DNA of 45,510 bases, from IMG/VR virus record IMGVR_UViG_3300033489_000513; one strand, written 5' to 3'. The translations under genes and the position numbers were made by a program. Origin of the DNA: a virus. This document shows, piece by piece, positions 1,714-21,462 of this stretch; within the stretch, counting starts at the first letter, position 1; each line of letters begins with the position of its first letter. The notes under the pieces are model-generated. The model was given only the letters and a program-made list of their open reading frames with translations, ran no database searches and had not been told where the DNA came from.

Positions 1714-1726
1714 AAGATTATCCTCC

Positions 1727-2230: not shown

Positions 2231-2235
2231 AAGTT

Positions 2236-2816: not shown

Positions 2817-2833
2817 TCCTCAATTGAGCACAT

Positions 2834-3217
2834 ATGGCAGAAGATGTTTATTCTCAACTCAAACGATTTTTAGTAGATGGAAAAGATTGGGAAGAAATGA
2901 CCACGCCCCACAAAAGACTTATTATCACGAAGATTCCTGGCAAGAGAACAAAAGGAACTACTCCAATATTCCCCAAAATCGCGCCAAAACTTCTTCATAC
3001 TGATTTGAATGGAAAACCAATTCGTTATAAGGGAATTTTTATTTATGATGAGGAAACTCTTATAGATCTCATCGAAACACTTGAAGATCCTCGCGTGAAA
3101 TATCTTATAAAAGCTTGTGCGGATTTAAATGGGGGAAATATCCACCACCAACCCCAGCGCGAGCTCAAGGGGGAAATTCCAATGGATTATGATGGGACGA
3201 AAGATGAATTAAAATGA
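2834..3217 (+). CDS. Hypothetical protein resembling a conserved archaeal family (FL.xG.DWE...P motif)
   Basis: 127 aa ORF with its own promoter motif; family resemblance is from memory only. Confidence 0.55.
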   Translation: MAEDVYSQLKRFLVDGKDWEEMTTPHKRLIITKIPGKRTKGTTPIFPKIAPKLLHTDLNGKPIRYKGIFIYDEETLIDLIETLEDPRVKYLIKACADLNGGNIHHQPQRELKGEIPMDYDGTKDELK

Positions 3218-3226
3218 AAAATAGAT

Positions 3227-4483
3227 TTAAGCGTTAGCACAGGTTTTGGGAACTCCCACGCCACAATATCCGAGAGGACACCGTCCTTCCGCTTCATTTG
3301 GGGATAAAAGGGCTGCGTGGGTGATCGCGAGATTTTCCTGAGCAGAATCGTATTTCTCTCCTTTATAATCTCCGCTTGGTCCATCAGTATAGAGGTATCC
3401 AATGGAAGTTCCGACAGCTTCTCGTTTCTTGAAATATCCATCTAAGTTTTCTGAAATCCGCTTTTTATAGACATGTGCCTTTCCAACAATACGTTCATTT
3501 TTGGCATCATATTTAATTTGATCAACATAACCTACTTCGAGACTAGGTACTTCGTGTTGGGGATGATGTTCGAAGAGAGGGATTTTTTCTGCGGGTTTTC
3601 CCGTTTTATAATCGATGAATTTTGCATTCTTAAGATTTTCTGGCAACTTTGCCATTTTCATTTTTTTCTCAGGAAACTCTTGAACCATTGCTTTCGTGAG
3701 GATGATGGGGACTATATATTCACTGTCTGTTTCGGTGACGTTATCCATCTTGAAACAAGCACTTTTATCATCGATAGCATGAGCCATCGTTATTTCTGCA
3801 GAGGCGGGAAGAGAAAAATAGTCCCGTGTGGCTAACTCATATGCATCCATCACGTCTCTCCCTTCCTCCACCCGATATTCGAAGAAATCATAGAAAGAGA
3901 AATTTACTTCATCCGCATCCAAAACTCCTTCTAGTTGACTTTGCCAAGCATATGGCGTGGTGAGAGAGATGCCCGTCAGATTTTGCACGGTATGGCGGAA
4001 GGCGGTGAGAAGATCATTATCTTCCCATTCTTTCTGGAGGATTTGGATAAATTGTTGTTGGGAAACTTTTCGTTGGTCTTTTTCCTTTTCGTCCCCCATT
4101 TTATTCAGGAAGTCAAATTTGGAATCTTTACGACCTTTAGCAGCCATCTTTTGGAATTTACCTTTTCCAAATTTCTGTTGGCCGATATAAGCACAAAGTT
4201 CAGGGGACTTGCCTGAAGCAACGCACGCTTTGAAGCGGGCTCCTGACCCAGCCTTAGCTTTCGAGAAAGGTTTATCTTCTTCCTCGGGCTCTTCTTCTTC
4301 AGGGTCACCTTTTTCTTCTTCAGGCTCCTCTTTTTCGGGTTTATCTTCTTCCCCGATATTTTTCTTTTTCTTCTTGCCACTACAACCTGCTCCCCAATCA
4401 GATTGGGGTGGGATACTATGTAAAAACTCGAAATTATTCATCCAAATCATCTTCTCCAGTGGGGGGTAAAATATCTTCAGCAA
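3227..4483 (-). CDS. Prohead maturation protease (DUF2213-like C-terminal domain) with long N-terminal extension; start may be 4441
   Basis: C-terminal HHP...VGYV...SIGY...GDYKGEKYDSAQENLAITHAALL...GRC matches the DUF2213 pattern; upstream of scaffold and MCP. Confidence 0.75.
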   Translation of the reverse strand: MLKIFYPPLEKMIWMNNFEFLHSIPPQSDWGAGCSGKKKKKNIGEEDKPEKEEPEEEKGDPEEEEPEEEDKPFSKAKAGSGARFKACVASGKSPELCAYIGQQKFGKGKFQKMAAKGRKDSKFDFLNKMGDEKEKDQRKVSQQQFIQILQKEWEDNDLLTAFRHTVQNLTGISLTTPYAWQSQLEGVLDADEVNFSFYDFFEYRVEEGRDVMDAYELATRDYFSLPASAEITMAHAIDDKSACFKMDNVTETDSEYIVPIILTKAMVQEFPEKKMKMAKLPENLKNAKFIDYKTGKPAEKIPLFEHHPQHEVPSLEVGYVDQIKYDAKNERIVGKAHVYKKRISENLDGYFKKREAVGTSIGYLYTDGPSGDYKGEKYDSAQENLAITHAALLSPNEAEGRCPLGYCGVGVPKTCANA

Positions 4484-4658: not shown

Positions 4659-5753
4659 ATGTCAATTCCAGACAAGAAAAAACTCGAATTACATGTAAAT
4701 GCTCAAGCCCCTTTTGTGCTCGTTATCGCGAATATGATCGATCCTTATTCGCGAGATTATATATATGCGCTCCGGGAAATGGGTTATGATGTGCTCCAGA
4801 TTGGGATTGGAAGCAAATTCATTAATATGCATTTCTATCCCTTCGAAAAAGTAATCCGATCTCCTGGTCGCTTGCCCGAACCTTATCGAGAACTTTCGAT
4901 AGAAACGTTGCTGGATTTTCTCAATGCATTTGAATTTTCCTTCGTGTTACATCTTCAAGATGATATTCATTTTAAGGATAAAGAGAAATGTTCGATTCCC
5001 TATTTTTATATCGCGAGGAATGTTCCCTACCCGCTCAAATATCCCCGTTCCGCGTGGAGATTCTTTGCAGAAACTCTTAATCTTTATGGTTCTTTGAAGG
5101 GGAATCCAAATATTCTCGCGGCACTCCATTATCATCCTCTCGCCATTAGCGCACCACTCAATTTCACGCCTTCAACTGCTGAACGAACAATTGAAGGGGG
5201 ATATCTTGGAGATCCATATCTCACGCGAGGGAAAGTAAATGCTGTTGATTTCATAGAGAAATTAGCAATGAATCTTCCTTCTCTTGAATGTCATTATCTT
5301 GGTCCCCCTTCTCAAGATCCTCAAAATAATATGCGAGAAATAGGCGTTGGTCAAGGTGTTTTGTCTCTTCCCGCACGTAAGACATTCTGGAGTCAATGTA
5401 AAGTAGGGTTTTCAATGGCAAGTGCTGGTTCCATTGTTCAGGATGATCTGGAAATCTGTTTGAATGGTGCTATGCTCGTCACGCAAAGTTCACTCGATCA
5501 TGAAGCGATGGGATTTCAAGATGGCGTAAATTGTCGGATGTATAAAACAATGGAAGAAGCGATATCTGCTATCCGCGATTATGACCCAAAGATCGCGGAA
5601 GCGGGCCAAAAACTCGTTTTAGAACGCCATACTATTCGGGCGAGAGCTGCATCGTTTGCAGTTCAAATTGAAAAAGAGATGGGAATTCTTCGCCCCCTTC
5701 CACTTCACGATAAAATGCGCCCGCAACCCTTTATGGAAACCAAGAAAGAGTAG
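4659..5753 (+). CDS. Glycosyltransferase, GT-B fold, CgeB/Glyco_trans_1_2-like
   Basis: C-terminal LEICLNGAMLVT...GFQDGVNC...IAEAGQKLVLERHT; paralog of 21618-22763. Confidence 0.75.
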   Translation: MSIPDKKKLELHVNAQAPFVLVIANMIDPYSRDYIYALREMGYDVLQIGIGSKFINMHFYPFEKVIRSPGRLPEPYRELSIETLLDFLNAFEFSFVLHLQDDIHFKDKEKCSIPYFYIARNVPYPLKYPRSAWRFFAETLNLYGSLKGNPNILAALHYHPLAISAPLNFTPSTAERTIEGGYLGDPYLTRGKVNAVDFIEKLAMNLPSLECHYLGPPSQDPQNNMREIGVGQGVLSLPARKTFWSQCKVGFSMASAGSIVQDDLEICLNGAMLVTQSSLDHEAMGFQDGVNCRMYKTMEEAISAIRDYDPKIAEAGQKLVLERHTIRARAASFAVQIEKEMGILRPLPLHDKMRPQPFMETKKE

Positions 5754-5760
5754 AATAGAT

Positions 5761-5913
5761 ATGAAAGAATTATTCTATTGTGAACGGTGTAAACTTTATT
5801 ATCCTCCCAATGAATATCATAAAAAAATTAAAAAATGTCCCCGTTGCCGTCTCCCTTTTGCAACAAAACTGGTTAGCGAAGAAGATTTGAAAAAAATGAG
5901 GGTCGTGATTTAA
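5761..5913 (+). CDS. Small zinc-finger protein
   Basis: CERC...CPRC; stop overlaps the next start codon. Confidence 0.6.
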   Translation: MKELFYCERCKLYYPPNEYHKKIKKCPRCRLPFATKLVSEEDLKKMRVVI

Positions 5914-6632
5914 TGTCAAAATATTCCCATCTCCCCATCATTTCCTATATCCCCGCATTAGATGAAGAAAGTGATATTGAAGGCGCTTGTCGGAATGCGC
6001 TTCAAATATGTTACCAACCAGATGATGAAGTTTATGTTCTCTTGGATCCTCGGACCAAGGATCGAACACGGGAAATTGTTGAGCAATTTCCTCAAATTAA
6101 GATTTATCTACAAGACCCAGATTTGGGGAACGCCACTCGCCATAATCGAGGATCCGATGAAATTACGTTCATCCATAATATAAATGAATTCTTGAAAACG
6201 GTTGTTCCTGAAGGTCATTGGGTGATGGTGATGGCGGGGGATGAACGATATGACCATCGCGATGCGGAGAAAATCCGTTTCTACATCGATCAAGCGGATG
6301 GATTGAATGCTAATGCTCTTATCTTCGAGATCGCGGATGTATTCCCTGATGAACGACAGCGCATAGCATATGAATCCGTCCCAGGGTTAATTCTCGCTCA
6401 TTTACGTTTCTTCAAATATCAAGAAGATTTTGCTTTTGGCACTCGCGCTCATGATGATATTGGAGATATGGGAACCCGAATTCGAGCGCGCACGGGACTT
6501 TGGTTTTATCATTTTGGAAATTTGAAGAAAACAACAGACTGGAACTGGTGGAGAAATTGGGATGGCGTGAATCTTACCAAGAAATATGTCCCGCTCGATA
6601 ATCCATTTAGCGATTGGAAAAGAGGAATTTAA
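5913..6632 (+). CDS. Glycosyltransferase family 2-like
   Basis: PALDEE...DPRTKDRT...GDER...YHFG; paralog of 9014 and 20809. Confidence 0.75.
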   Translation: MSKYSHLPIISYIPALDEESDIEGACRNALQICYQPDDEVYVLLDPRTKDRTREIVEQFPQIKIYLQDPDLGNATRHNRGSDEITFIHNINEFLKTVVPEGHWVMVMAGDERYDHRDAEKIRFYIDQADGLNANALIFEIADVFPDERQRIAYESVPGLILAHLRFFKYQEDFAFGTRAHDDIGDMGTRIRARTGLWFYHFGNLKKTTDWNWWRNWDGVNLTKKYVPLDNPFSDWKRGI

Positions 6633-6697
6633 AGTTCAAAGCAGTAGGAAGAGGTATTGTAATGATAGTTTAAGGACTGGAAGAAGAAGGTATTTAA

Positions 6698-7714
6698 ATG
6701 GTAAAAGAAAAACGAGAAGATGAGGCAGTATTTAAATTCGAGAGAGAATATAATGGAAACTTTAATACAATCGCAGCAGGACATTATACTACTACGGGAG
6801 GATTTGATTTTACTAAGATTCTGAATTGTAACCCTTCTCCTGATCCTGTTTATAATCTCCTCGCATCAAGCGAAGAGAAATTGATTCCGTGGTATAATCA
6901 TATCCGCAAGCGGAAAGGACCTATTACTTTAATGGTAATGCCAACCAATCGCTGTAATTTAAATTGCGATTTCTGCTCCAATTCCGCGCGAAATATGAAT
7001 GAAGAACTTTCTCTTGCCAAAATTCGATTAACCTTTCAAAATCTTCCTTCTCTCAAGGCTATAGAAATAACGGGAGGGGGGGATCCCTTGTGTCATCCTT
7101 TAATTGGAGATTTAATCCATGAAATTCTAATTAAAAAATTACAAGTAGGGTTGATTACGAATGGGATTTTATTAAAAAAAATCCAATATTACCTTCAAAA
7201 ATTACATTGGCTTCGGATTTCATTGAATGGAATTATTGATAGCAAGCAAAAGGTTCCTTTCGAGATCATTCCCCTTCAGCTTTATACGGGCACAACTTAT
7301 ATTCTCCACGAGAAATCCCCTCCCGATTATCTGGATCAAATCAAGGAAATTTTAACGGCAAATCCTATACTTCAATATTGTAAAATTTGTGGAGATACAC
7401 GCAAATCTTCCCATTCAGATAGAATCGAAATTCGGGGAGAGAAAACCTATTTCTATGACCGAGAATTCCACGATGGAAATAATATACCCTGTTATTTAGG
7501 TTCCATCAAACCCGTTCTCGCGCCTGATGGGAGGTTTTATCCTTGTTCCAATCTCGTTCTAAAAACGGGTGCATATGAAGCGGGAGATTCCATCTCTCTC
7601 GAAGATATATGGAATTATAAACCTGTTGTTTGTACTTGTAAATCTTGCTTCCTTTGGAAGCGAAATGAAGTGGTTTCCAAACTGCTCATTGATCGTTCGG
7701 TGAATTTTGTGTAA
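6698..7714 (+). CDS. Radical SAM protein with SPASM/twitch-like C-terminus
   Basis: CNLNCDFC, TGGGDP, ITNG, DGRFYPC. Confidence 0.9.
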   Translation: MVKEKREDEAVFKFEREYNGNFNTIAAGHYTTTGGFDFTKILNCNPSPDPVYNLLASSEEKLIPWYNHIRKRKGPITLMVMPTNRCNLNCDFCSNSARNMNEELSLAKIRLTFQNLPSLKAIEITGGGDPLCHPLIGDLIHEILIKKLQVGLITNGILLKKIQYYLQKLHWLRISLNGIIDSKQKVPFEIIPLQLYTGTTYILHEKSPPDYLDQIKEILTANPILQYCKICGDTRKSSHSDRIEIRGEKTYFYDREFHDGNNIPCYLGSIKPVLAPDGRFYPCSNLVLKTGAYEAGDSISLEDIWNYKPVVCTCKSCFLWKRNEVVSKLLIDRSVNFV

Positions 7715-7990
7715 ATGACCCCCGCTTTTAAGCGGGGGCTTGCCACTGACGGACGCAACGCAAGCATTTACTACCATCTGTTTCCACACCAAAAAGGTTA
7801 GAACTATGCGCGAAACTCCGAGTACCGAGCTACAAGAACGGCAGGATCCTCCACAAGTCCTGCCCCCTTCGGCAGAACCGTTGAATGCCGCGAGTCTACA
7901 AACCTGTGGCAACCCCACAGAGGACTCTATGCTTGGTATTCCTTTGGGATGTGGGTATCACTCCCGCGAGGGAGCCAGAATATCTGGGCA
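7691..7990 (+). ncRNA. Putative omegaRNA (guide from the 5' flank plus scaffold); boundaries approximate
   Basis: About 280-nt GC-richer region between the element end and the PLMP motif, the canonical omegaRNA position. Confidence 0.65.
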
Positions 7991-9013
7991 CGCCGTGTTT
8001 GTGGTAGGAGTTGATGGAACCCCCTTAACTCCAACCACGAGTGCAAAAGCAAGGAAGTTACTAAAAGGAAAACAAGCGAAACCGATCTGGAATAGATTTG
8101 GACAATTTGGATTGCGGATGCTCGTGAAGACGGGTACGATAACCCCCAACACAATATTAGGGGTAGACTTTGGAACCAAGTTTGAAGGATACGCCGTAGT
8201 CACGGGTAAAGAGAACAACCTCGCCGTAATGTGGAAATTGCCAGATAAGAAAAATATTGTTCGGAAATGCGAGGAGCGAAGGCAGCTCCGCCGCGCGCGG
8301 CGGTTCCGGAATTGCAGGCGGAAGCAATGCCGATTCAGTAATCGCGACAAAAAAGGATTCATTGCACCTTCGCAATTAGTGATCATATATAGCCGCCTGA
8401 AGGCAATTTCGGAATTTCTCAAGTGCTATCCTATAAAGATTGTTGCTATCGAAGACGTAAAATTTAATCACGCCAAGTATCGTTGGGGAAAGAACTTCTC
8501 AACTATTGAAGTTGGGAAGACGAAAATCTACGAATATATTCACGCTCGGGCGTTCTTCCAAATGTATAATGGATACGATACGCCCGACATCCGCGAGACC
8601 TATGGATATAGGAAATCCTCAAGCAAGAATGCGGAAGTTTTTACTTCCCATTGTTCGGATGCACTCGCGATGGCAGTAGATGCATCCTGCAAGCAATACG
8701 TTCCCGAAGGATCTTTCATCGTAGTAGATGACACGTATCGTTCCATCCGTCGGAAACTGCACGATTCACAATTTAGCAAGGGCGGGATACGATACAAATA
8801 TTCAACAGGGAATTTCCGAGGAATACGGAAGGGAACAATGTGTGCATTTGGACAAATTGTCGGTGGAACACGAAATAGTGCATGGATTCGTAATAAAGAC
8901 AACAAGAGAGTTGGAAAAACAATGGCAAAGATCAACTGGTTATCTCATCATTTTAAATACGTGCGACCAATTTCTTCCCCGCTTAAAAGTGGGGGTTCCC
9001 GTGGAGGATTTTT
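7711..9013 (+). mobile_element. IS200/IS605-superfamily IsrB (OMEGA) element, non-autonomous
   Basis: Left end GTAAATGACCCCCGCTTTTAAGCGGGGGCTTG hairpin; right end CCCCGCTTAAAAGTGGGGG hairpin followed by ATGA; no tnpA. Confidence 0.85.
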
Positions 9014-9017
9014 ATGA
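7995..9017 (+). CDS. isrB: IsrB RNA-guided nickase (RRXRR family, no HNH); true start probably near GTG 7995 rather than 7740
   Basis: PLTP (PLMP domain), GVDFG (RuvC-I), RRQLRRARR bridge helix, IEDVKF (RuvC-II), SHCSDA (RuvC-III); no HNH between RuvC-II and RuvC-III. Confidence 0.85.
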   Translation: MFVVGVDGTPLTPTTSAKARKLLKGKQAKPIWNRFGQFGLRMLVKTGTITPNTILGVDFGTKFEGYAVVTGKENNLAVMWKLPDKKNIVRKCEERRQLRRARRFRNCRRKQCRFSNRDKKGFIAPSQLVIIYSRLKAISEFLKCYPIKIVAIEDVKFNHAKYRWGKNFSTIEVGKTKIYEYIHARAFFQMYNGYDTPDIRETYGYRKSSSKNAEVFTSHCSDALAMAVDASCKQYVPEGSFIVVDDTYRSIRRKLHDSQFSKGGIRYKYSTGNFRGIRKGTMCAFGQIVGGTRNSAWIRNKDNKRVGKTMAKINWLSHHFKYVRPISSPLKSGGSRGGFL

Positions 9018-9754
9018 AAGATTTTCCAAAAGTCCCTTTTGGTTTCACTGTTGCCTTGAATGAAGAAGAATGTATTGAAGGTTGGGTTCGGCAGGCAATG
9101 GATTTATGTGAAAAAGTTGCAGTGTATGTGGATCCCACTACAAATGATAAAACTGTTGAAATTCTCCATCATCTCCAATTAGAAAGTAAATATCAAGATC
9201 GATTAACCATTGGCGTTCAAGATCGCGCTCTGGGGAATGATGATAAATACCATCCAGGAACTATCCATATTTTTCACGTAAATCAAACGATGATTATTAA
9301 GAAATACGTGAAAGTAGGGACTTTTTTCTATTATCTGGATGTTGACGAGCGCATTAATCCATTTCAATATGGATTACTTGCTAGTGCCTTAACAGAAGCT
9401 CAGGAAAATGGAGCACAAGCCGTTCTTTCTGGCGCAAAATATGAATTTTATCCAGATGAAGAACATATCGTAAATTGGGGGTTTCCCGTTAATCAATATA
9501 TCTTTTTATTAAACGATGGAAAAATTGAACGAGACCCAAGTGCTCATGGAACATTCAATCTCAATCCCCCACTAAATTGTTGGGTAAGCAAAGTCCCAAT
9601 CTATCATTTTTCCCGCGTGAAAAAATCCCAAAAACCGTTCAAGTGGTGGGATGATTTGCCAAGTTCAGATTACGTGAAAATGCGCCAGAAAATTGGACGA
9701 ATAGATACAATCCCCTTTCATAATCGCATCCCCAATTGGAGGACGATGAAGTGA
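9014..9754 (+). CDS. Glycosyltransferase family 2-like
   Basis: ALNEEECI...DPTTNDKT...LDVDER...YHF. Confidence 0.75.
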   Translation: MKDFPKVPFGFTVALNEEECIEGWVRQAMDLCEKVAVYVDPTTNDKTVEILHHLQLESKYQDRLTIGVQDRALGNDDKYHPGTIHIFHVNQTMIIKKYVKVGTFFYYLDVDERINPFQYGLLASALTEAQENGAQAVLSGAKYEFYPDEEHIVNWGFPVNQYIFLLNDGKIERDPSAHGTFNLNPPLNCWVSKVPIYHFSRVKKSQKPFKWWDDLPSSDYVKMRQKIGRIDTIPFHNRIPNWRTMK

Positions 9755-10590
9755 ATTCTCTTCTCTTTCCCCCAAAATTTAAACTCGGAAAAGAATGGTC
9801 TCTCGTTCTGATTCATTATAACCAGAATGAACGAATCCCGATCTCGTTGAAATATTGGCGGGAACAAAGTATTCCTCCCACGGAAATTATCCTTTTGGAT
9901 GATGGGAGTTTGATTAAACCAGATTTACACGCACAAGGAAGAGAATCTATTTCTGTCTTTCATCTCGAACATACTGGGAATATTGGAGCAATATTGAATA
10001 AGGGAATTGACGCAACTCATACTCCAATCTTTATGACTGCTGAACCCAGTCTCCTGCCAGTAGGAAAATATTTCGCGGAAAAACAACTCGCTCGTTTGGA
10101 AAAGGGGAGTTTTCATATTCCCATTTATGCCATCACTTCTTCTTTACCAATGTTGGATATTGGGAATATTGATGCTTTCGATCATACTTTCGGACAGAAT
10201 CAAAGAACCTCCACTCGTTTTGGTGTGTGGAATATACCTGATCTTCAGACTCCAAGGAAGATAGAAGGTATGTGGTATCCCGTTGAAGGGCATTTTACCG
10301 CAAAAGCGGATTTCCTGCGATATAATGAGAAGTATACTTGTTGGGGGTTTTATGATCTCGACCTCGCCGTCCGATATTATCTGAAGGGAATCCAGATTTT
10401 CACTCAAGATGAAAGTGCCATATGTCATTGGAATCATCCCCGCATAGGTAATTGGTATGATCGCGCCAAAACCCAACCCCTTTTCGATTTTTGTAAGCGA
10501 TATTACGAAGCATATAAGATCACCACTTTAGATAAACAAACTGAAAACAAAATCTGGCAGGAATATTGCGATGTCCACCAAGCTGCTTGA
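9751..10590 (+). CDS. Glycosyltransferase family 2 with GT7-like C-terminus
   Basis: IHYN...LLDDGS...WGFYDLDL...HWNH; GTG start overlaps the upstream stop; paralog of 19255. Confidence 0.75.
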   Translation: MNSLLFPPKFKLGKEWSLVLIHYNQNERIPISLKYWREQSIPPTEIILLDDGSLIKPDLHAQGRESISVFHLEHTGNIGAILNKGIDATHTPIFMTAEPSLLPVGKYFAEKQLARLEKGSFHIPIYAITSSLPMLDIGNIDAFDHTFGQNQRTSTRFGVWNIPDLQTPRKIEGMWYPVEGHFTAKADFLRYNEKYTCWGFYDLDLAVRYYLKGIQIFTQDESAICHWNHPRIGNWYDRAKTQPLFDFCKRYYEAYKITTLDKQTENKIWQEYCDVHQAA

Positions 10591-11500
10591 AAATCCATTT
10601 GTTTCCAATGCCGCGAAACTAATGGGGAACATTGATCGTTTGGCGAAATTCAAGGAAACGGGAGAATTATTTCCCATCACCCTTGATATTGGTCCCACGG
10701 GTCGCTGCAATCAAAATTGCCCGTTTTGTTCCGTGAAAAACCGGAATCGAAATGAAGACTTAAATCTTCAAGATGCTTTGTTAATTACTAAATATTACGT
10801 CCATTATGGTGTTAAAGGTATTGAAATGACTGGAGGGGGGGAACCCACACTTTGGCCGCATTTTGAAGAATTCATCGAAAAGATTTCTCAGGAACCTGTA
10901 AAAATTGGATTAATTACAAATGGGCGGTTGCTTCACAAATATTCTCCAGAATTCCTCCGTCATTTCACTTGGATTAGAGTATCTGTGAATGGTATTGATG
11001 AAGGGTGGGTACCAAACTTTGAAATCCCCCCCGAAGTCACCTTTTCCTTTTCTTATGTCTGGCATCGTGGGACTGAAGATGAAAAAACGAATGAACGATT
11101 AAAACAAGTTTTGGAGAAATGTCCAAACGCCAAAGCGTTGAAGATTCAAAAGGATGTATTTATCGACCAATTAAACCCTATTTCAATAAATCCTCTTACA
11201 AACTCCCGTGTTTTTATAGGAGATAAGGGAATTGAAACAATTCCCGCTAAATGTTTCATTGGGTGGCTCAAACCACATTTGAGCGCAGATGGAAAAATCT
11301 ATCGGTGTTCAACTTGTGCGTTAAAAGAACGAAAATTCACATCCGAATTTGTGATGGGAGATGTAGATCATCTTCCTCTGTTTGTTCCCGACTCGAAAAC
11401 ATTCAATCCTGCTCAGCATTGTGAACGATGTTTCTATACCGCCCAAAATGAGTTGGTTCAGAAAGTTATGAATCCAATCGAACATTCCGAATTTTTATGA
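10571..11500 (+). CDS. Radical SAM protein, paralog of 6698-7714
   Basis: CNQNCPFC, TGGGEPT, ITNG, DGKIYRC. Confidence 0.9.
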   Translation: MSTKLLENPFVSNAAKLMGNIDRLAKFKETGELFPITLDIGPTGRCNQNCPFCSVKNRNRNEDLNLQDALLITKYYVHYGVKGIEMTGGGEPTLWPHFEEFIEKISQEPVKIGLITNGRLLHKYSPEFLRHFTWIRVSVNGIDEGWVPNFEIPPEVTFSFSYVWHRGTEDEKTNERLKQVLEKCPNAKALKIQKDVFIDQLNPISINPLTNSRVFIGDKGIETIPAKCFIGWLKPHLSADGKIYRCSTCALKERKFTSEFVMGDVDHLPLFVPDSKTFNPAQHCERCFYTAQNELVQKVMNPIEHSEFL

Positions 11501-12648
11501 TAGAAGCACAAATTATTATTCCTCCATCCCCCTTTTTGACAGATGAGTTAGTATTTCCACAACTCGGTCCATTATATATCAAACGATTTTGTGAAGAACG
11601 ATCTCAAGGAAATATAAGGGTGGATATAATCCGTATTAATAGTAAGAAGAAAATTGATCCTTTTCTTCCTACTGGTTTTTCGTGTACAACCCCACAATAT
11701 GCTTTTGCTAAAAAGGCTCATATGATGTTTTATGATAAAACAATTGTCGGGGGACCACACTGCGCGCATTACGATGTTTCAAAGGATAAGTGGAATTTCA
11801 TAATCAAAGGGGACGGGTGCTTTCCGTTTTATGACATTCTCAACGGAAATCAACCCATAGAACAATATGACCCAGTTGATCAACTTCCATACCGCGATGA
11901 AAGCCTTCACGATTATAAATACTACCTCGATGGCAATCCAACAACGGTTATGATGACTGCAAGGGGCTGTCCAAACAACTGTTATTTCTGTGAAGATGCG
12001 AAGAAAGCAGTGAGATTGAAGAGCATAGGCATAGTCAAAAAAGAACTGAAAGAATGTGTGGACTTAGGATTTAGCGGGATTATGTTTTTTGATGATCTCT
12101 TTTGTATTAATCTGTCTCGCGTGAAGAAACTCTGTGACATTATTAAACCTTTCAAAATTAAATTCCGGTGTTTCGCGCACGCGCGTAACTTTTCTCGTGA
12201 AATGGCTCAACTCTTAAAAGGGGCGGGGGTTATAGAGATCGGATTTGGCGCAGAACACGCAGACCAACGAATTCTTGATTTAATTAATAAAAAAACAACT
12301 GTTAAGCAAAATTATGATCTTGTGAAAACTGCCCACGAATTTGGCATTCGTGTCAAAGCATTCACGATGTTGGGCTTACCTGGGGAAAATAAAGTATCAG
12401 TAGAGGCATTACGGAAGTTCATAACAACTTCTGGCATTGATGATTATGATGTAACCGTATATTATCCCTATAGAGGCACATACATAGCAGATCATCCAAA
12501 CCAATTCGATTTACAAGTTGAGAAAAATGGTAGTGGATTTTATAAAGGAAGAGGAGGAATTTCAGAATATACAGTTCGAACTTCCGCGTTAACATCTCAA
12601 CAAATACAAATAATACAAAGAGAATTATTGTTATATAAGAAAAGATAA
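11497..12648 (+). CDS. B12-binding radical SAM protein (class B methyltransferase-like)
   Basis: IVGGPH, TARGCPNNCYFC, FFDDLF, AGVIEIGFGAE, MLGLPGE, PYRGT. Confidence 0.9.
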   Translation: MIEAQIIIPPSPFLTDELVFPQLGPLYIKRFCEERSQGNIRVDIIRINSKKKIDPFLPTGFSCTTPQYAFAKKAHMMFYDKTIVGGPHCAHYDVSKDKWNFIIKGDGCFPFYDILNGNQPIEQYDPVDQLPYRDESLHDYKYYLDGNPTTVMMTARGCPNNCYFCEDAKKAVRLKSIGIVKKELKECVDLGFSGIMFFDDLFCINLSRVKKLCDIIKPFKIKFRCFAHARNFSREMAQLLKGAGVIEIGFGAEHADQRILDLINKKTTVKQNYDLVKTAHEFGIRVKAFTMLGLPGENKVSVEALRKFITTSGIDDYDVTVYYPYRGTYIADHPNQFDLQVEKNGSGFYKGRGGISEYTVRTSALTSQQIQIIQRELLLYKKR

Positions 12649-12656
12649 TTCAAATA

Positions 12657-13173
12657 TAGTTTATCCTTATAGATAGAGAATAATTATTTTCTCCAAGCAA
12701 TCCGAGCATAGCAAATGCGGTTCACCCCTATGAGTAGGGAATAATTACGCCAAATCCAATCTCGACACATCCCGCTTCCGGTTCACCCCTATATGTAGGG
12801 AATAATTAAGTCAACAGTTTCTTTCGCTACTGGCGGATCTGGTTCACCCCTATATGTAGGGAATAATTCACTATATCAAGAGTTCAATTTATGGCTCCCG
12901 CGGTTCACCCCTATATGTAGGGAATAATTATCGCAATGAGCGAGCTTATAGAACGTGCCATCGGTTCACCCCTATATGTAGGGAATAATTCTTCGTGAGG
13001 GGGGGTATTTCCAATTTTTCCACGGTTCACCCCTATATGTAGGGAATAATTGGGGCGATTCTCCACCGCTTGCCCAACTTTATCGGTTCACCCCTATATG
13101 TAGGGAATAATTAGAAGAGAATGCATTAATTTTGGCAGCGATTACGGTTCACCCCTATATGTAGGGAATAATT
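12657..13173 (-). CRISPR. Type I-E CRISPR array: 8 conserved 29-bp repeats plus one degenerate trailer repeat, 8 spacers of 32 bp
   Basis: Repeat CGGTTCACCCCTATATGTAGGGAATAATT at 12718, 12779, 12840, 12901, 12962, 13023, 13084 and 13145 (61-bp period); degenerate copy at 12657; minus strand ends in AACCG like type I-E repeats. Confidence 0.97.
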
Positions 13174-13234
13174 ACTGGAAAATGTTTGTAGAATTGAGTA
13201 ATCCATTCAAGATTCTGCGGGTGTATATCTATGT

Positions 13235-13876
13235 CTAAGAAGGGCCAATTAAGAGCAATCCCAACCCGAATGCTTTCCCCGGCCCAATTCCTTTTTGGAG
13301 AGTTTGAAAAAATTGATCCAAATCGGTTATTCGTAATGTACCTTCAAAATCAACTGTATTTAAAATTATCTTTGCTTCATTTGTCTGGGGATTGCGTGGT
13401 CTCCATCCATCCATTGAAATAACCACAGTTACAAGAGAAAATCCTTTTTGTTGGGACTGCTTTTGTAACCAATTTATTTGATCCTCTCTTTTTAAAAGGG
13501 GTTTTCTCTTCCGATTAACATCATAAATTGTGGGGTTTGCCCGTAAAGTAAAACGAAGGATTTTGTTGGGGGTTATTTGCTTCAATTGAGAAGATATTTC
13601 CTTTACCATAAATCCACCCATATAACCAGGATAATGTGAGATAAGTTGTTCCCACTTTGGTTTTTCGGTAGATTGAGCCCAAATAATGGAACGATTTCCA
13701 TTAGGAATAACTCGAAATAAAACATTGAAATATGCCCGCGCCATTCCTTCTACATTTTTGTTTATAACAGTAGGGAAAGCAGACATTATTGTTCGATGTA
13801 ATTCTTTCATATTACCCATATCTCTTTGAGATTGGGGATTTTCGACACGTAAAAGCAATTTCGATAAATAAATCAT
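13235..13876 (-). CDS. cas6e: Cas6e (Cse3)
   Basis: YLSKL, LH, LFRV, FTLRANPT, GIGPGKAFGLGLL. Confidence 0.95.
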   Translation of the reverse strand: MIYLSKLLLRVENPQSQRDMGNMKELHRTIMSAFPTVINKNVEGMARAYFNVLFRVIPNGNRSIIWAQSTEKPKWEQLISHYPGYMGGFMVKEISSQLKQITPNKILRFTLRANPTIYDVNRKRKPLLKREDQINWLQKQSQQKGFSLVTVVISMDGWRPRNPQTNEAKIILNTVDFEGTLRITDLDQFFQTLQKGIGPGKAFGLGLLLIGPS

Positions 13877-14535
13877 AGTATTTTCGCCTTGGGTATCGGA
13901 ACTTGAAATCTTCGAATATTGCGGAACGAATATAATCGCGATATGGGGGTATTTGTAATGCGATCTTGGAGGAGATTTTCACCAAGAGGATCTTCGATGA
14001 TACATTTAAGTGTTTTTGGAATTGGGAAAGAACTTTGCCAAGGATGATACCGTATTGCTTCTTCAAGGGAACTATATTTCGGGGATAATTCTTCAAAGGG
14101 AGGGCGAGTAGGGGGACAACTCTTTCTGCCTAAATAAAGAATCCATTTTGGATTTTGTAATGCTTGAGCACATTTTGTTAATAATTCAAAATTTCCCGCA
14201 AATATCGCGAGAAATGAACCATCGAAAATATATTTTCTCTTAGAAACAATTGTCTCGTCTCGGATTTTTCTTTTACTATTTAGCGATCCTTTAATAGTTT
14301 GATAGTCGAGAGAAATATCCCCCTCTCTTTCAACGCGGATAGCAAGGGTTAAGTTTAAATCTAACTCAAGAATTTGGGGATCGTTGTGATGATAACCAAG
14401 GGCACAAGCAAGCAATCCAATAAGGCCAGACTTTGTTGGTTCCAAATTTGTATTTCGGAAATCATAACGAGTATAAAGACCCCATGATTGCATTGGAGCT
14501 TCTAATCGAAGTATAAGGAAAAGGGGATTAGACAT
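13873..14535 (-). CDS. cas5e: Cas5e (CasD), normal length, no HNH
   Basis: LRLEAPMQSWG, PTKSGLIGLLACALG, LYLGRKSCPP. Confidence 0.95.
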   Translation of the reverse strand: MSNPLFLILRLEAPMQSWGLYTRYDFRNTNLEPTKSGLIGLLACALGYHHNDPQILELDLNLTLAIRVEREGDISLDYQTIKGSLNSKRKIRDETIVSKRKYIFDGSFLAIFAGNFELLTKCAQALQNPKWILYLGRKSCPPTRPPFEELSPKYSSLEEAIRYHPWQSSFPIPKTLKCIIEDPLGENLLQDRITNTPISRLYSFRNIRRFQVPIPKAKIL

Positions 14536-14553: not shown

Positions 14554-15789
14554 TTAGAAATATGAAAGAATCACTTCCAACAAATCATTCACATTTTCAT
14601 ATTTGGAAGCATTGGAAGGCGGGGGAAGACCTTGACCAACTGATGTGGTAAACCAAAGGCGGTGTATAGTTTCGAGGGAAAAACACTTTGTCAATTCATC
14701 TGCGTGTTTAATTAATGTTGCGATACTGTTTTCGATGAGTTTTCCCGATGCCTCAATTGGATTTGAAAACGCATTTGCATAACTAAGGGAACCTTTCTTC
14801 GGTCGGATCTCAATCAGGATCGCGTCAGGTAGTGAAAAGGCGGCAAAGGCATTTTGTTTCCCACTTGGATTGGTATAGATAATTGCTTTTAAACACGCTT
14901 TAATACTTAATTTTAAAATTTCCTTTAAATTTGTTTTAAAATGGGGGTTAAGATTGACACGAAGTTGATCCGTATCTATCGAAAAATACTTGTAAAAACA
15001 AGCGCTATTATAGGGGATATGACCTGCCATAGCAAATCCCTTTGTATCTAAATCATCAATTGCTGAGAAGTAATCAAATTCCAGTTCAATGGGATTTGTG
15101 GAGATTGCATGAGCTACTTGTAACGCGGCTTTAACATCAGGAAAAGCATCTGAAGTCGTCATACGTCCCAGAAGCGCGATGTCTGGCGTTAAGTAGGGTT
15201 TCAATTTCTTGACACTTTTAATTTTAGTTTGTAGTAGTTTCAAATCCGTTGCTTCAAGGTTTGGATCTATCTTTTCCTTTGCATTTTTCTTTGCGGTTTT
15301 CGGCGTGATATAATTTTCGGGATGATTAATGGCATCACAAAACACATCCGCATTCAAGACTACCTCTTGATCTGTAAAGAAGATTCGTTGTTTCGTGATA
15401 TGTTTCTGAGTAATGTCCTCCGTTTCTTCATTTGATTCCGTCTCACTATTTTCGGGATCTTCTTCCTTTGAAGGGGATTGGGAAGTTGTCCCAAACGCAG
15501 CGACCTTCTGAGCTGCAATCTCCGCTAATTGTGGGGAAACCTTCCGCCGGTTTAGTTCAGCTCTCACAAGTTCGGGGAGGGTTCTGCTCGCGATTCCTAA
15601 GGGGATACCCGCCAGAATCTGCTTGAACTCTGGAGAAACACGAATATTCCTTTTGAGACATTGACTGGAAATTCGTGCGCGTTGAACGCCTCCAAAGATG
15701 GCTGTCTTTGGATTATTGTTTTCATCTCGATTTAAATTACTCGGAGCGTAGTTTTCTAAGATATGGATCTCGATTAACATAGATTTCAT
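14554..15789 (-). CDS. cas7: Cas7 (Cse4)
   Basis: PSNLNRD, GGVQRARISSQCLKR, DIALLGRM, QVAHAIST, PSGKQNAFA. Confidence 0.96.
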   Translation of the reverse strand: MKSMLIEIHILENYAPSNLNRDENNNPKTAIFGGVQRARISSQCLKRNIRVSPEFKQILAGIPLGIASRTLPELVRAELNRRKVSPQLAEIAAQKVAAFGTTSQSPSKEEDPENSETESNEETEDITQKHITKQRIFFTDQEVVLNADVFCDAINHPENYITPKTAKKNAKEKIDPNLEATDLKLLQTKIKSVKKLKPYLTPDIALLGRMTTSDAFPDVKAALQVAHAISTNPIELEFDYFSAIDDLDTKGFAMAGHIPYNSACFYKYFSIDTDQLRVNLNPHFKTNLKEILKLSIKACLKAIIYTNPSGKQNAFAAFSLPDAILIEIRPKKGSLSYANAFSNPIEASGKLIENSIATLIKHADELTKCFSLETIHRLWFTTSVGQGLPPPSNASKYENVNDLLEVILSYF

Positions 15790-15792
15790 TCC

Positions 15793-16515
15793 TTATTTTT
15801 TTCCATTAAGATATGAGTTTAACCATTTAGATTGTACGTGATGATCTGATGCATTCCATTCAAGGAGATCTTGATTTAATTGATTATAATCCACACAACA
15901 ACTTTTTTTTAGGGCGAGTTTTTCAACAAAATAAGCAAGATTTCGTAATAACATTCCATTCCGTTCACTACGAATCATAAATCGTATTTTTGTTGTATGT
16001 ATATCACAAATGCCAAGAAATCGAATAATTATTCCAAAATTCTCGGCAATTCTTCTATTTCTATTAGGGAAGTTTATTCTTGACAAAAGGGAGGTCATTT
16101 CTTGTGCCGAAAAGATTTGAGTAGAAGGAGATTGAGATAAAACTCTTGCAACATCAAAGCGAGTTTTTAAGATTGTCTTGCAATTGAGATTTATTTGTCC
16201 TTTGGAGTTTAATTCTTGGGGCGAACCAATGTATTCATATAAGAGAGGAAGACAATCCCGATGCCGTGTTTCACTTCCACACCCTTGAAATTGTTGTGTG
16301 AGCTTTAAGAGATTAGCTTCAATCGAAGGCGCGGGAATACGTTTTAATATTTTGACGTACCCATAATTTGCAGTTTGAAAATCTTTACGTCTTTGTTCAA
16401 CATCTTGAGATTCCCCAAGTTTAAGAGGACCGTTTTCTCCTAATTCCATTATATATGTATCTTGGGGACTATCAGTTTTTGTTTGTTCATCTTCAAGGAA
16501 TTTTTCATTTTCCAT
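15793..16515 (-). CDS. cas11: Cas11 (Cse2) fused to an N-terminal GIY-YIG-like (T5orf172/MUG113) domain
   Basis: Located between cas8e and cas7; C-terminal VDYNQLNQDLLEW...VQSKWLNSY fits Cse2; N-terminal TYIMELGENGPLKLGESQDVEQRRKDFQTAN fits T5orf172. Confidence 0.8.
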   Translation of the reverse strand: MENEKFLEDEQTKTDSPQDTYIMELGENGPLKLGESQDVEQRRKDFQTANYGYVKILKRIPAPSIEANLLKLTQQFQGCGSETRHRDCLPLLYEYIGSPQELNSKGQINLNCKTILKTRFDVARVLSQSPSTQIFSAQEMTSLLSRINFPNRNRRIAENFGIIIRFLGICDIHTTKIRFMIRSERNGMLLRNLAYFVEKLALKKSCCVDYNQLNQDLLEWNASDHHVQSKWLNSYLNGKK

Positions 16516-17893
16516 TTATTTCTACATCCTTTATTCGTTGATATTTTGCCAAAATTAAGGGATAGATTTGATTTTGTTTTAAAAACTTAGATAAGCATTC
16601 AATTCCAATGTCCTTTATTTGGTCTGGATTTAAAGAATCAATATTATTGAAGAATGGAATCAACTTTTCCCAAAAAGATGAAATAATGTTCTTTTTCAAT
16701 TGATTCCTTAAAACGGAAGTATATTTCGCGAGATCTGAAAGATAAATGGATTTTATTATAAGATTAATTGTATTTGAAGCGATAGAGATCATATTTTGTA
16801 TTGAGGAAAAAGACTTCAATGAAATCTTTTCCTTTACTTCATCATAAAATTTCATGTCTCCATCTGTAATTAAACCATATACTTGAATGGAAGAATTTTT
16901 CTTGTTGATTCCTTCCATAAGAATTGATTGAGTTATGAAGGGGGGAAGTTCAGGTTTCTTCAGACAAAGTTGAACCCACACATTTGGGGAATAAGGATTG
17001 GGATAACCACTAAAGTTAGGACGAAAAGGTTTCTTTTTTACATATGCAACGTTTGAATCCTTCCACAATTCTTTCTTCTTATTGCGACCCCAACCAGCAC
17101 GAAAAATTACGTTTTTAATTAAGAGAGGGACATTCTTACCAGAATATTCACAAGTCCCTCCTGTTGAAGGAAAGAGATGTACAATACGGGGTTGCCAAGT
17201 TAATCCTTCTAAAATCATAGCAGAATCAAATGACTTCTTAGAAACACATACATCCGAACGCCAAAAGGGAATACCCATTAAGGAAGAAGAAGAGATAAAT
17301 GCATAAACATTAAACATTAATGTTTCAAATAGATTATGTCCTTTTAACATAAAATACCAAGGCGGCATTCCATTTATACTTGGGGAATTGCCTTTACCGC
17401 CAGATGTAATAAACGCAGGAAAACTACATAACGCCTGAGCGCAAATTTCTGGAGAAAGAGATTGAGGATTCTTATGAATGAAAAAAGAAGAGTTTATGCC
17501 ATGAGGAAAATTTTGAATTAAAATTGAAACGGAGTGACATTTCTTCTCGTCTAAGTCAGGGGTTTGGTAGAAAGGATGCTTATTATCAAATAAATCGAAA
17601 CGAGATTTCCATAAAGCGATATAATCTTGAATTGTCTGTAAATCAAATTTCTTTTGTTCAATAATTGATTTTACTGAAGTTATCGTTATAGAGAATGCAT
17701 CAAGAATAAATGCAAAAAGAAATCGATACATTCCAAATTCAAAAATGGGGGAAGAATCATAAATCTCCCGAAGATTATATGCATTTTCCAAAATCTCCAA
17801 AATACTATAGACTTGTACTTGATTTTGGAAGTTCATAGCAGGAATCCATTTCTCAAACAATAAATTATAGGAAATGGGAAGATACTTACACAT
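16505..17893 (-). CDS. cas8e: Cas8e (Cse1)
   Basis: YNLLFEKWIP, RFDLFDNKHPFYQ, GHNLFETL, LTWQPRIV. Confidence 0.92.
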   Translation of the reverse strand: MCKYLPISYNLLFEKWIPAMNFQNQVQVYSILEILENAYNLREIYDSSPIFEFGMYRFLFAFILDAFSITITSVKSIIEQKKFDLQTIQDYIALWKSRFDLFDNKHPFYQTPDLDEKKCHSVSILIQNFPHGINSSFFIHKNPQSLSPEICAQALCSFPAFITSGGKGNSPSINGMPPWYFMLKGHNLFETLMFNVYAFISSSSLMGIPFWRSDVCVSKKSFDSAMILEGLTWQPRIVHLFPSTGGTCEYSGKNVPLLIKNVIFRAGWGRNKKKELWKDSNVAYVKKKPFRPNFSGYPNPYSPNVWVQLCLKKPELPPFITQSILMEGINKKNSSIQVYGLITDGDMKFYDEVKEKISLKSFSSIQNMISIASNTINLIIKSIYLSDLAKYTSVLRNQLKKNIISSFWEKLIPFFNNIDSLNPDQIKDIGIECLSKFLKQNQIYPLILAKYQRIKDVEINGK

Positions 17894-17914
17894 AGATAAA
17901 ATAACGGTTGTATT

Positions 17915-17927
17915 TATTTAAATCTTT
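17915..17927 (-). promoter_or_regulatory. Putative archaeal BRE/TATA promoter of the cas operon
   Basis: AAAGATTTAAATA ending 21 nt before the cas8e ATG; no Shine-Dalgarno. Confidence 0.5.
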
Positions 17928-17974
17928 GTGAGAAAGAATATAAAATAAAAGGTGATCGGAAATCCGCATTGCCT

Positions 17975-18063
17975 CGGTTCACCCCTATAGTAGGGAATAA
18001 TTTGGCAAGGATATTGCATCGCAGATAACAACATCGGTTCACCCCTATATGTAGGGAATAATT
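17975..18063 (-). CRISPR. Mini CRISPR array: 2 repeats, one 32-bp spacer
   Basis: Same repeat at 18035-18063 (perfect) and 17975-18002 (1-nt loop deletion). Confidence 0.93.
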
Positions 18064-18705: not shown

Positions 18706-18990
18706 GTGTTAACCAAATTTGAAGAAATTGTTGATGCTAAAAGTATTGGGTCGACTATAAATCCAATTAATTTGAATGCTTTGCTTACCAAGGCGGGGAA
18801 GGAAAACCTCCGCCCCACGAGTCAAGATAAGAAACGTGCCTTATTACTTTGCATTGATATGCAAAATGATTTTATGGAAAATGGGTCGTTAGCCGTTCCC
18901 AATTCTCACGGGGATGTAGAACGTTTGACTCACTGGATTTATTCAAATATGGAGAATGGGGACGCTCTCAAACCTCTGTTTCCACAATGA
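18706..18990 (+). pseudogene. Truncated isochorismatase/nicotinamidase-family gene
   Basis: LLLCIDMQNDF...GSLAV motif, then the ORF ends before the metal-binding and catalytic Cys regions; GGAG upstream. Confidence 0.7.
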
Positions 18991-19254: not shown

Positions 19255-20130
19255 TCACAACAATTTGATGATATTTTGCTTCGCATATTTATCACAATTA
19301 TTTCTATATTTAAGAAAATTTTCCATTTGAAAGGTTTGGTAGAAATCCTTGTCAGTCCTTGGGTGAGTGATGTGATACATTACACAATCCTCAAATCCAT
19401 AGGCGGCATTATTCGCGAGTTGCCAGCGGAAGGTATAATCGAGGTCGTAATATCCCCGTCCCCGATAATCTTCGGAATATCCTAAAAAGTCTTCCGTGTA
19501 CATCATCGCACCTTTTTCAGGAGCATAGGGACAAAGAATAGAGTCCCCGCCTTCGGGATGCTTGGGCGGGAATTTCTGGCGAGCGCTGGGGAGAAATTTT
19601 TCACATCCCATCATCATTTCATCCATCGTGAGTGGACGGGTAATTGTACTTCCCCAGCAGGAAACTTTTCCCATTTCAAGTGTGGCATATCCACAACGAG
19701 CACACCGACCCATCTTGGGAAAATAATTCCCAAACGAAACAAGAGGGTAAGGAATATTCCAATCCGTATCCACCGTCCGAGGGATAATTCTCGTTCCTCG
19801 TTGGATGCGCCGGAGCTGGAGATTTGCAAAGTCTAACGCGGGAATGTTAAAAGGTTCGGCGGGAACGAAAAGGGGAGTTTTAACTTCCTTAATGCCTTTG
19901 TTGAAAAGTTTCCCTAAATTCATGGTGCGGATAGGTTCTTGGATAAAAGTTACTCTTCTTACTACATGGTATGGTAAATGGGTGATACTGCCATCATCCA
20001 CGACTATGATCTGGAGTGGAGGAGGATTCTGCATAAACCAAGCGAATACGCATCGCCTGAGCGTGGAACTAGTATTATAATGGATGAGAACTACCGAATA
20101 ATAATGATCCTCTTTCAAATGAAAGACCAC
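19255..20130 (-). CDS. Glycosyltransferase family 2, paralog of 9751-10590
   Basis: LIHYN, VVDDGS, PAEP, GYYDLDY, YHITHPR. Confidence 0.75.
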   Translation of the reverse strand: MVFHLKEDHYYSVVLIHYNTSSTLRRCVFAWFMQNPPPLQIIVVDDGSITHLPYHVVRRVTFIQEPIRTMNLGKLFNKGIKEVKTPLFVPAEPFNIPALDFANLQLRRIQRGTRIIPRTVDTDWNIPYPLVSFGNYFPKMGRCARCGYATLEMGKVSCWGSTITRPLTMDEMMMGCEKFLPSARQKFPPKHPEGGDSILCPYAPEKGAMMYTEDFLGYSEDYRGRGYYDLDYTFRWQLANNAAYGFEDCVMYHITHPRTDKDFYQTFQMENFLKYRNNCDKYAKQNIIKLL

Positions 20131-20663
20131 GCTTCCAACGAAATCGCATTCGCTAAGTCATAGAGTGATTTCTTGATGAAAATATCTATCCCGAAGAGGT
20201 TCTGCATTTGATATTGAACATCAAGTAGACGGGGATATTGGGGATGAACGCCAATGCAGAGTCTGATTTTATCTCCTCTCATCGCGCGCATACTATGAGC
20301 ACCTAACTCAAAAAGCACGATGGGTTGAATTTGATCTTTATCAAACCAGAAAGAGATTATGTTTGCTTTTCGCAACATCTCAAACTCCCATTTGACTTGG
20401 GCGGAGGCTGCATTCTTGTCATGTATGGGAAAATTCGCCCGGCGCGGATTTATCACGATCAATCTTCTGGCCATCGGGAGTTTTTCCAGATATTTCCGCA
20501 GGATTTCCACAAGTTCAGTTTGCCATTCCGAACATCCAGTAATTCCTCCCGCGAGAAAAACGATGGGAATTTTCTGCTCTTTATATTCCAAAGGAATTTG
20601 GTTAGGTGCTTCCACGTAAATAAGTTGACCCATTAAATTAACCTCTTTTATTCTCCTTACCAC
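20115..20663 (-). CDS. Nucleoside 2-deoxyribosyltransferase-like protein
   Basis: VFLAGGI...WQ...INPRR...QVKWE...FWF...PIVLFELG. Confidence 0.8.
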   Translation of the reverse strand: MVRRIKEVNLMGQLIYVEAPNQIPLEYKEQKIPIVFLAGGITGCSEWQTELVEILRKYLEKLPMARRLIVINPRRANFPIHDKNAASAQVKWEFEMLRKANIISFWFDKDQIQPIVLFELGAHSMRAMRGDKIRLCIGVHPQYPRLLDVQYQMQNLFGIDIFIKKSLYDLANAISLEAWSFI

Positions 20664-20808
20664 GGCTCTCTATCAGAACATTGTTTGGAATTTTTAGGAG
20701 AGAAAGGGCACGGTTTCAAGTAATTGAATCCTCCAGAATCTTCTCTGCCCCCCTCTTTTCGAGGAGGGCGGGAACAATATCCATTCTTGCGGAGATATGG
20801 ACAGCTCA

Positions 20809-21462
20809 TTAGATACTCTCCTGCCAATTTTTAAAGGGAATACTGGTAGAACAAGTCTTATCTGTAATATTCAACCCGACCCATTTTTTATTTGGATTCT
20901 TTTTCAAATACCCGAAATGCCAGAAGGGAAACTGGCTGGAAAGTGTATTATATAAACCTGTTTCCGCGCCGGGGATATCTGGATAAAATCGAAGATTTGT
21001 CGTCCGCCTGAAAATCTTCTTGTGAACGAATTGGAAGTTGGGAACCTTCTCAAACGCAAGACGGTGGAATATATCGGGATAAAGATCCACGATACCAAGA
21101 GAAATGGCATCATAATTTGAAGAGGAGGCAAGATCCACCAATCTTCGAATGGGCTCGACTTGGGCGGGATGTAATCGTTCGTCCGCATTCAACCACAAAC
21201 ACCATTTTAATTCTTCAACATAAGTTCGCAAGAATTGGTGAATTGACTCCCAAAGATCACTTTTTTGGAGATCGATAATAACCCACGGACAATCCTTCTT
21301 CAAGATATCAATGGTTTCATCAGATGTTTTTGGATCCACTAACGCATAAACTTCATCGCAAAAAAGGCGGATGTTCTTGGCCCATCCTCGAATACATTCT
21401 GCTTCATCCAAAATAGGCGCAAATCCAATGAGATGTTCATGTCCTAAAGTTGTCATTTGCAT
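20809..21462 (-). CDS. Glycosyltransferase family 2-like, paralog of 5913 and 9014
   Basis: PILDEAECI, DPKTSDET, LNADER, WHFGYLK. Confidence 0.75.
   Translation of the reverse strand: MQMTTLGHEHLIGFAPILDEAECIRGWAKNIRLFCDEVYALVDPKTSDETIDILKKDCPWVIIDLQKSDLWESIHQFLRTYVEELKWCLWLNADERLHPAQVEPIRRLVDLASSSNYDAISLGIVDLYPDIFHRLAFEKVPNFQFVHKKIFRRTTNLRFYPDIPGAETGLYNTLSSQFPFWHFGYLKKNPNKKWVGLNITDKTCSTSIPFKNWQESI

Follow-up and report, generated by a model that had tools for sequence, protein, structure and literature searches.

Viral CRISPR arrays that lack cas genes of their own have already been described with spacers that target a neighbouring gene while the virus's own copy of the site is mutated; for these Cas-less mini-arrays, the origin of such targeting was stated to be unclear, and the proximity of viral spacers to their targets was named as an open question (PMC6858448). 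Type I variants that lack Cas3 or have a nuclease fused to an effector subunit are also known, with an HNH domain on Cas5 or Cas8 or a VRR-NUC domain on Cas11. The latter, a type I-E variant with a VRR-NUC (PD-(D/E)xK) domain, is found in PMC10910872 and also in PMC12669027, whose text names it I-E3 and whose supplement names it I-E4. Among the nucleases found in phages, the T5orf172 enzyme Odn keeps the Arg and needs the Glu of its family, and T5orf172 activity rests on both residues (PMC8263062). Here we describe a viral cassette in which a type I-E effector operon with a putative T5orf172-type nuclease on Cas11 lies beside an array whose two oldest spacers match the adjacent gene.

The DNA analysed, called the window below, is 45,510 nt long and forms part of a 145-kb contig from a soil metagenome. 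Because its proteins include a portal, a head protease and a major capsid-like protein along with several DNA methylases and clusters of glycosyltransferase and radical SAM (rSAM) genes, the contig is assigned to a tailed virus. A TFIIB-type zinc ribbon and PolB are encoded on related rSAM contigs. The cassette sits between two convergent, paralogous-looking glycosyltransferase clusters (4659-12648 and 19255-22763), with the portal gene (23002-25053) on one side of them and the genes for protease and capsid (721-4483) on the other. At 7740-9017 and 28742-29818 lie two RRXRR (IscB/IsrB-like) genes whose inverted end sequences are related; one of these genes interrupts the left glycosylation cluster. 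Five DNA methyltransferase genes of the N6/N4, D12 and C5 types are clustered at 30647-39476, and perfect tandem repeats of 24 and 12 bp at 1-144 and 255-396 encode low-complexity peptide. A truncated isochorismatase-like ORF (18706-18990) just outside the cassette may be a gene broken near the right junction. The cassette and the gene beside it comprise the following features, where L003 and L007 denote two related loci taken up below.

11497 to 12648, plus strand: B12-type radical SAM gene (383 aa; Pfam Radical_SAM) adjacent to the array, the resident allele of the targeted family
12217 to 12251, plus strand: self site for spacer 12747-12778, AAA followed by a 23/32 match, holding Val245 (12229-12231)
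12356 to 12390, plus strand: self site for spacer 12686-12717, AAG followed by a 23/32 match
12657 to 13173, minus strand: type I-E array with nine repeats of 29 nt and eight spacers of 32 nt
12686 to 12717, minus strand: oldest spacer, reading FAMLGLLGEN
12747 to 12778, minus strand: second-oldest spacer, reading EAGCVEIGFG, 27/32 to the L003 allele
13174 to 13234, minus strand: short leader separating the array from cas6, with an end similar to that of the L007 leader
13235 to 13876, minus strand: cas6e (PF08798)
13873 to 14535, minus strand: cas5e (220 aa), no HNH extension
14554 to 15789, minus strand: cas7e (PF09344)
15793 to 16515, minus strand: GIY-YIG (T5orf172/MUG113)-Cas11 fusion (240 aa), nuclease domain at about residues 19-90 (16246-16461)
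16505 to 17893, minus strand: cas8e (Cse1, 462 aa)
17914 to 17945, minus strand: promoter-like TCTCACAA motif and AT-rich box upstream of cas8e
17975 to 18063, minus strand: second mini-array of two repeats (one with a 1-nt deletion) and one spacer (18003-18034) without a match

In order, the operon reads cas8e-cas11-cas7-cas5-cas6e, and the corresponding Pfam domains are Cse1, Cse2 (weak, E 3e-4), CT1975, Cas5d and CRISPR_assoc, as in a type I-E effector. The locus departs from canonical type I-E: in the window and a further 9.4 kb of the 145-kb contig, tblastn detected none of Cas3, Cas1 and Cas2, and the portal gene is the only ORF of Cas3 size in the DNA checked (about 55 of 145 kb). The Cas3 queries recovered 6 of 34 control loci and are thus not very sensitive, so the absence of cas3 rests mainly on ORF sizes. 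Neither Cas5 (220 aa) nor Cas8 (462 aa) has a hit to an HNH family, which sets the operon apart from the Cas5-HNH and Cas8-HNH systems, and the domain fused to Cas11 in its relatives is MUG113/T5orf172, above the Pfam cut-off, rather than the PD-(D/E)xK domain of the VRR-NUC variant (I-E3/I-E4). The TCTCACAA motif occurs eight times in the window against 1.9 expected and recurs upstream of other viral genes; its enrichment and its place before cas8e suggest that the operon may be under viral promoter control. The array itself is of type I-E, with a hairpin repeat ending in CCG. Its degenerate terminal repeat (12657-12685) starts 8 bp past the rSAM stop codon and has eight mismatches, while the next repeat has two. 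Spacers 12686-12717 and 12747-12778 sit at this trailer end, and the opposite end resembles the leader end of L007, which bears out the claim of the initial annotation that these two spacers are the oldest. With its own Cascade operon and 8+1 spacers, the locus is not a mini-array of the described kind, which has no cas genes of its own and one to three spacers. The second mini-array, upstream of cas8e, leaves the cas operon flanked on both sides by direct repeats, between which it could loop out by recombination.

The N-terminal part of the resident Cas11 resembles T5orf172/MUG113 in language-model features and in structure. An independent profile hits the nuclease domain at E 1e-9; the domain is predicted to fold as beta-beta-alpha-beta-alpha with a pLDDT of about 76-82 over residues 21-60, and its best fold matches, which are weak, are GIY-YIG proteins (Foldseek E 0.35; VIA Z 5.7, rmsd 4.2, 78 aligned). 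Searches with Pfam and PHROGs did not detect the resident GIY-YIG domain by itself. Three full-length homologues (P0123, P0124 and P0125, 26-28% identical) contain both MUG113/T5orf172 and Cse2 Pfam domains, and each is encoded directly after cas8e. A single-sequence structure model of P0125 reached a pLDDT of 34, and P0122 is a repeat artefact. Tyr21, Lys32, Gly34, Arg42, Glu66 and Glu82 are invariant in all four fusions, and the resident domain shows the fold, Tyr, K-x-G, Arg and Glu of T5orf172/MUG113. The C-terminal motif (E-x-x-L-H, GEWF) is intact in P0123-P0125; the resident domain keeps both Glu residues and lacks the His and the Trp-Phe, and it scores 26.6 bits against 41-59 in the relatives. 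The loss of these residues lowers our estimate of its activity, and we regard the resident nuclease as moderately likely to be active.

The nuclease of L007, the locus of one of these three homologues, has a better chance of being active. This locus (L007:8524-19232) is a complete, cellular-type, Cas3-less I-E system with the same five genes, an intact GIY-YIG-Cas11, an array of 56 repeats, cas1 and a cas2 of 380 aa with a long C-terminal extension. The 20.7 kb of sequence at this locus contain no gene of Cas3 size; a Cas3-like tblastn hit (E 0.004) was dismissed since its frame is ridden with stops. The repeats of L007 and the window differ, and their Cas7 proteins are only 47% identical and group together weakly (90/50). 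Spacer 35 of L007 matches a window gene (30170-30201) in frame at 24 of 32 positions; the changes are conservative and AAA lies 5' of the match, which weakly suggests contact between the L007 host and relatives of this virus. No related cassette was found in viral contigs and no further GIY-YIG-Cas11 among 160 Cas7 loci from genomes and metagenomes. A literature search confined to journals outside subscription returned no publication that joins GIY-YIG with Cas11 or Cse2, and the fusion is absent from the supplements of PMC10910872 and PMC12669027. With GIY-YIG-Cas11, Cas3-less type I Cascades appear to have recruited one more nuclease family in addition to HNH and VRR-NUC. Present in four assemblies, the fusion is a candidate for a precise RNA-guided cutter or nickase that could be tested in E. 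coli.

The matches of the two trailer-end spacers to the resident rSAM gene are in frame and on the same strand, and the 23/32 alignments with AAG and AAA 5' that the initial annotation had reported are confirmed and exceed chance. Among 300 shuffled versions of each spacer, none (12686-12717) and two (12747-12778) reached 23 matches anywhere in the window, none did so inside the rSAM gene (0/300), and at the peptide level 0/60 shuffles reached either spacer's score. Mismatches to the resident fall at positions 5, 6, 8, 12, 14, 17, 20, 22 and 26 of spacer 12686-12717 and at positions 2, 3, 9, 10, 11, 13, 15, 21 and 32 of spacer 12747-12778. The same annotation had noted many third-position mismatches as well as mismatches in the seeds; by manual count 10 of the 18 are at third codon positions, and each spacer has two in the seed. 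The other seven spacers reach at best 21/32 in the window and 22/32 in 9.4 kb of further genome, which is chance level, as is the peptide likeness of spacer 13052 to the glycosyltransferase at 9736 (6/60 shuffles), a candidate that was set aside. Between the terminal repeat and the near ends of the sites lie 267 and 406 bp. In conservation the sites rank 3 and 26 among 373 windows of the rSAM gene, and 12356-12390 is the most conserved AAG-flanked window in that gene. Since the hits come from neighbouring spacers and share a strand, with 139 bp between them, they may represent one linked (primed-like) acquisition episode rather than two independent hits. Counted as one event among about eight, a chance hit on a homologue of the adjacent gene in a 145-kb virus is estimated at about 5-15%.

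The spacers have their origin in the rSAM family, and the comparison of alleles supports the view that they derive from a homologue, another allele, rather than from the resident gene. The resident protein has 143 homologues (best 65% amino acid identity) and groups in the tree with P0003 (L003) and P0004 (L004), with support of 100/99 and 99/91. The L003 and L004 alleles lie on virus-like PolB contigs and further family members on phage-like contigs, while one (L093) belongs to a glycosylation cluster that looks cellular. The peptide encoded by spacer 12747 is the consensus motif of the family; its best match is the L003 allele (27/32), three other alleles reach 25/32, and the resident reaches 23/32. 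As in the mini-arrays, the guides point to the neighbouring gene of related viruses and the self site is mutated. The oldest spacer, 12686, behaves differently, the resident being its best match among known alleles (23 vs 19-22); it encodes Ala and Leu at positions where no homologue has them and may therefore have decayed. Clade-typical residues of the spacers (Phe in GFG, a small residue before MLGL) agree more closely with the resident/L003 clade than with L093, which matches the spacers at 19 and 25 of 32 and has no AAG at the second site. In type I-E systems the last base of the repeat is the last base of the PAM, and the repeats preceding both spacers end in G, so both source sites would have had an NNG PAM; upstream of the second site the resident has AAA, a Lys codon that one synonymous change would turn into AAG. 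The initial annotation had expected near-perfect, AAG-flanked hits in the syntenic rSAM gene of cassette-free relatives, and none was found. No spacer has a perfect protospacer in the collections searched: exact and degenerate scans of viral contigs returned no hit for spacers 12747, 12686, 13052 and 13113, the EAGCVEIGFG coding pattern was not found in metagenome contigs, and the array yielded only noise (E=7) against GenBank phages.

The resident allele looks immune to its own guides, judging by its mismatches. Across 31 close homologues, its protein deviates at 4 of the 114 columns that are at least 90% conserved, and two of the four deviations fall in the second site, with Val245 in place of Cys and Ile246 in place of Val. 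Position 245 is Cys in 97 of 97 homologues. A third deviation, Thr290 in the first site, is shared with sister alleles and is thus not an escape change. The nine mismatches between spacer 12747 and the resident all affect pairing positions; the flipped-out positions 6, 12, 18, 24 and 30 are free of them, although in the second site these fall on wobble bases. Against this spacer, the six other alleles show 3-8 mismatches at pairing and 1-3 at flipped-out positions. The resident is the worst pairing match of the seven alleles and the only one without flipped-out mismatches (Fisher p 0.024, post hoc, one spacer). The first site has no such pattern. Taken as a whole, these differences suggest that the resident allele has been under selection to avoid its own guide. 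Guides against a virus's own gene should persist only with an immune, linked allele, and the observed arrangement fits this expectation.

The account we favour, and hold to be slightly better than an even bet, is that the cassette attacks rival viruses through a conserved, linked gene of which this virus keeps an immune allele. A tailed virus, probably archaeal, would have taken over the effector half of an uncommon type I-E system that has GIY-YIG-Cas11 and no Cas3, and a host with an L007-like system is the most likely source of the effector and part of the array. Cas6 would cut the array into 61-nt crRNAs, Cascade would open an R-loop at an AAG-type PAM, and the nuclease borne on Cas11 would nick or cut the bound DNA. 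The type I-E Cascade of E. coli holds two Cas11 copies, and two copies per complex could give two nicks. The two oldest guides would stem from a related virus, from its B12-rSAM allele, and aim at the most conserved motifs of that allele. With the resident allele tightly linked to the cassette and escaping through its mismatches, the cassette would harm relatives with a sensitive allele during co-infection, the target thus being a co-infecting virus. Counted against this account are the missing perfect protospacer, the oldest spacer fitting no known allele better than the resident, the eroded nuclease motif, an escape signal drawn post hoc from one spacer and seven alleles, the rSAM homologue in the cellular-looking cluster and a check for cas3 that covered about 55 of 145 kb. 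Guide, nuclease, target family and candidate escape mutation lie within one 6.5-kb block, so cutting and copying could be tested without host Cas proteins.

Inter-virus attack is compatible with RNA-guided homing, the reading put forward by the initial annotation, which would add a plausible copying step: the sensitive allele is broken 270-440 bp from the cassette site, and repair copies the cassette together with the resistant allele. The geometry, with both sites near the array and in conserved motifs, is that of a free-standing homing endonuclease, the T5orf172 domain is a typical homing nuclease of phages (PMC10448857), the ends left by a local cut would be repairable because no Cas3 shreds the DNA, and the proximity of guides to target is something that pure competition does not explain. 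Another phage rSAM allele (L177:6001-8007) contains an HNH intein at about residue 159-160 (resident numbering), beside the CxxxCxxC motif, which marks the rSAM family as a homing target. If homing were true, it would also explain why spacers of viral mini-arrays often target array-adjacent genes. The homologue origin of the guides (27/32 to L003), the virus-like contigs, the immune-looking resident and the candidate nuclease all speak for what that annotation proposed; it is weakened by the lack of a perfect protospacer and of a syntenic, cassette-free relative among the contigs searched. The nearest known alleles are 62% identical in DNA (40% at third positions), which is low for homologous repair, the genes downstream of them differ, the resident nuclease motif is partly eroded, and identity to L003 does not change stepwise around the sites. 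None of the seven younger spacers has a match nearby, and the fusion did not arise for homing, as it also serves the cellular-type immune locus L007. Contigs from the source sample showed no joint that skips the cassette, which is no evidence either way since contigs drop rare variants and one run was uncovered over the cas genes. Homing is therefore possible but somewhat doubtful, and plain competition between viruses, named as an alternative in the initial annotation, stays beside it.

The same two spacers could instead be the scar of capture: a host array acquired them against the virus family, and a cut or spacer-protospacer recombination at the rSAM gene brought in the cas operon and the trailer spacers beside it, so that the proximity would be historical and the guides now irrelevant. 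The virus has neither cas1 nor cas2 whereas L007 has them alongside the same operon-leader-array order, the two spacers are older than all others and adjoin decayed repeats, and at 0.357 the GC fraction of the cassette is below that of its flanks (0.404 and 0.432). We consider this unlikely because the junction is at the rSAM stop codon instead of at either target site and the replacement of Cys by Val implies that a live guide exerted pressure; the differences in repeat and Cas7 also keep L007 from being identified as the donor. An eroded nuclease motif would suit a Cascade that no longer cuts and, by binding, silences a homologue in the host or in a virus, in the manner of CRISPRi, and so alters, for example, surface glycosylation; a homologue does occur in the L093 cluster, and repressing Cas3-less systems on mobile elements are known (PMC11656645). 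The retained core Tyr, Arg and both Glu residues, the better fit of the spacers to the viral clade and the position of both sites deep in the coding region make silencing quite improbable. Least credible by far is self-regulation, in which imperfect guides tune down the resident rSAM gene; the AAG PAM at one resident site and the fit of the oldest spacer would agree with it, but seven and nine mismatches are at pairing positions, two of them in each seed, and the second guide fits foreign alleles better.

For inter-virus attack with an immune resident allele, the closest precedent is the mini-arrays of SPV1 and SPV2 (PMC6858448), which share with this virus the targeting of a neighbour and the escape of self. 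The comparison with T4-like GIY-YIG enzymes in the initial annotation passed over these closer Cas-less arrays. The SPV1/SPV2 arrays and the phage mini-arrays of Faure et al. 2019 (cited in PMC6858448) have one to three spacers and borrow host Cas proteins, whereas this virus has nine spacers and its own five-gene Cascade with a fused nuclease. Relative to the VRR-NUC-Cas11 variant, the nuclease is likewise at the Cas11 N-terminus within a type I-E operon, but it is T5orf172/MUG113 of the GIY-YIG superfamily; some VRR loci keep Cas3, and neither complete locus here has it (this cassette checked over about 55 of 145 kb). Cas5-HNH (I-E2) and Cas8-HNH (I-F4) are similar in being Cas3-less Cascades whose homing-type nuclease apparently stands in for Cas3. 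They differ in nuclease fold and carrier subunit, and cleavage was demonstrated there (PMC10910872, PMC12669027), while here it is predicted from sequence. The phage GIY-YIG/T5orf172 homing endonucleases, including ICP1 Odn (PMC10448857, PMC8263062, PMC9040626), belong to the same nuclease family, and the cutting of a conserved neighbouring gene with immunity of the linked allele is likewise predicted for this virus; specificity here would come from crRNA instead of a protein DNA-binding domain, and a 5.4-kb cassette takes the place of one gene. Targeting of a neighbour with self-escape is thus already known from Cas-less arrays, and the GIY-YIG-Cas11 fusion is, apparently, the part of this locus without a described counterpart.
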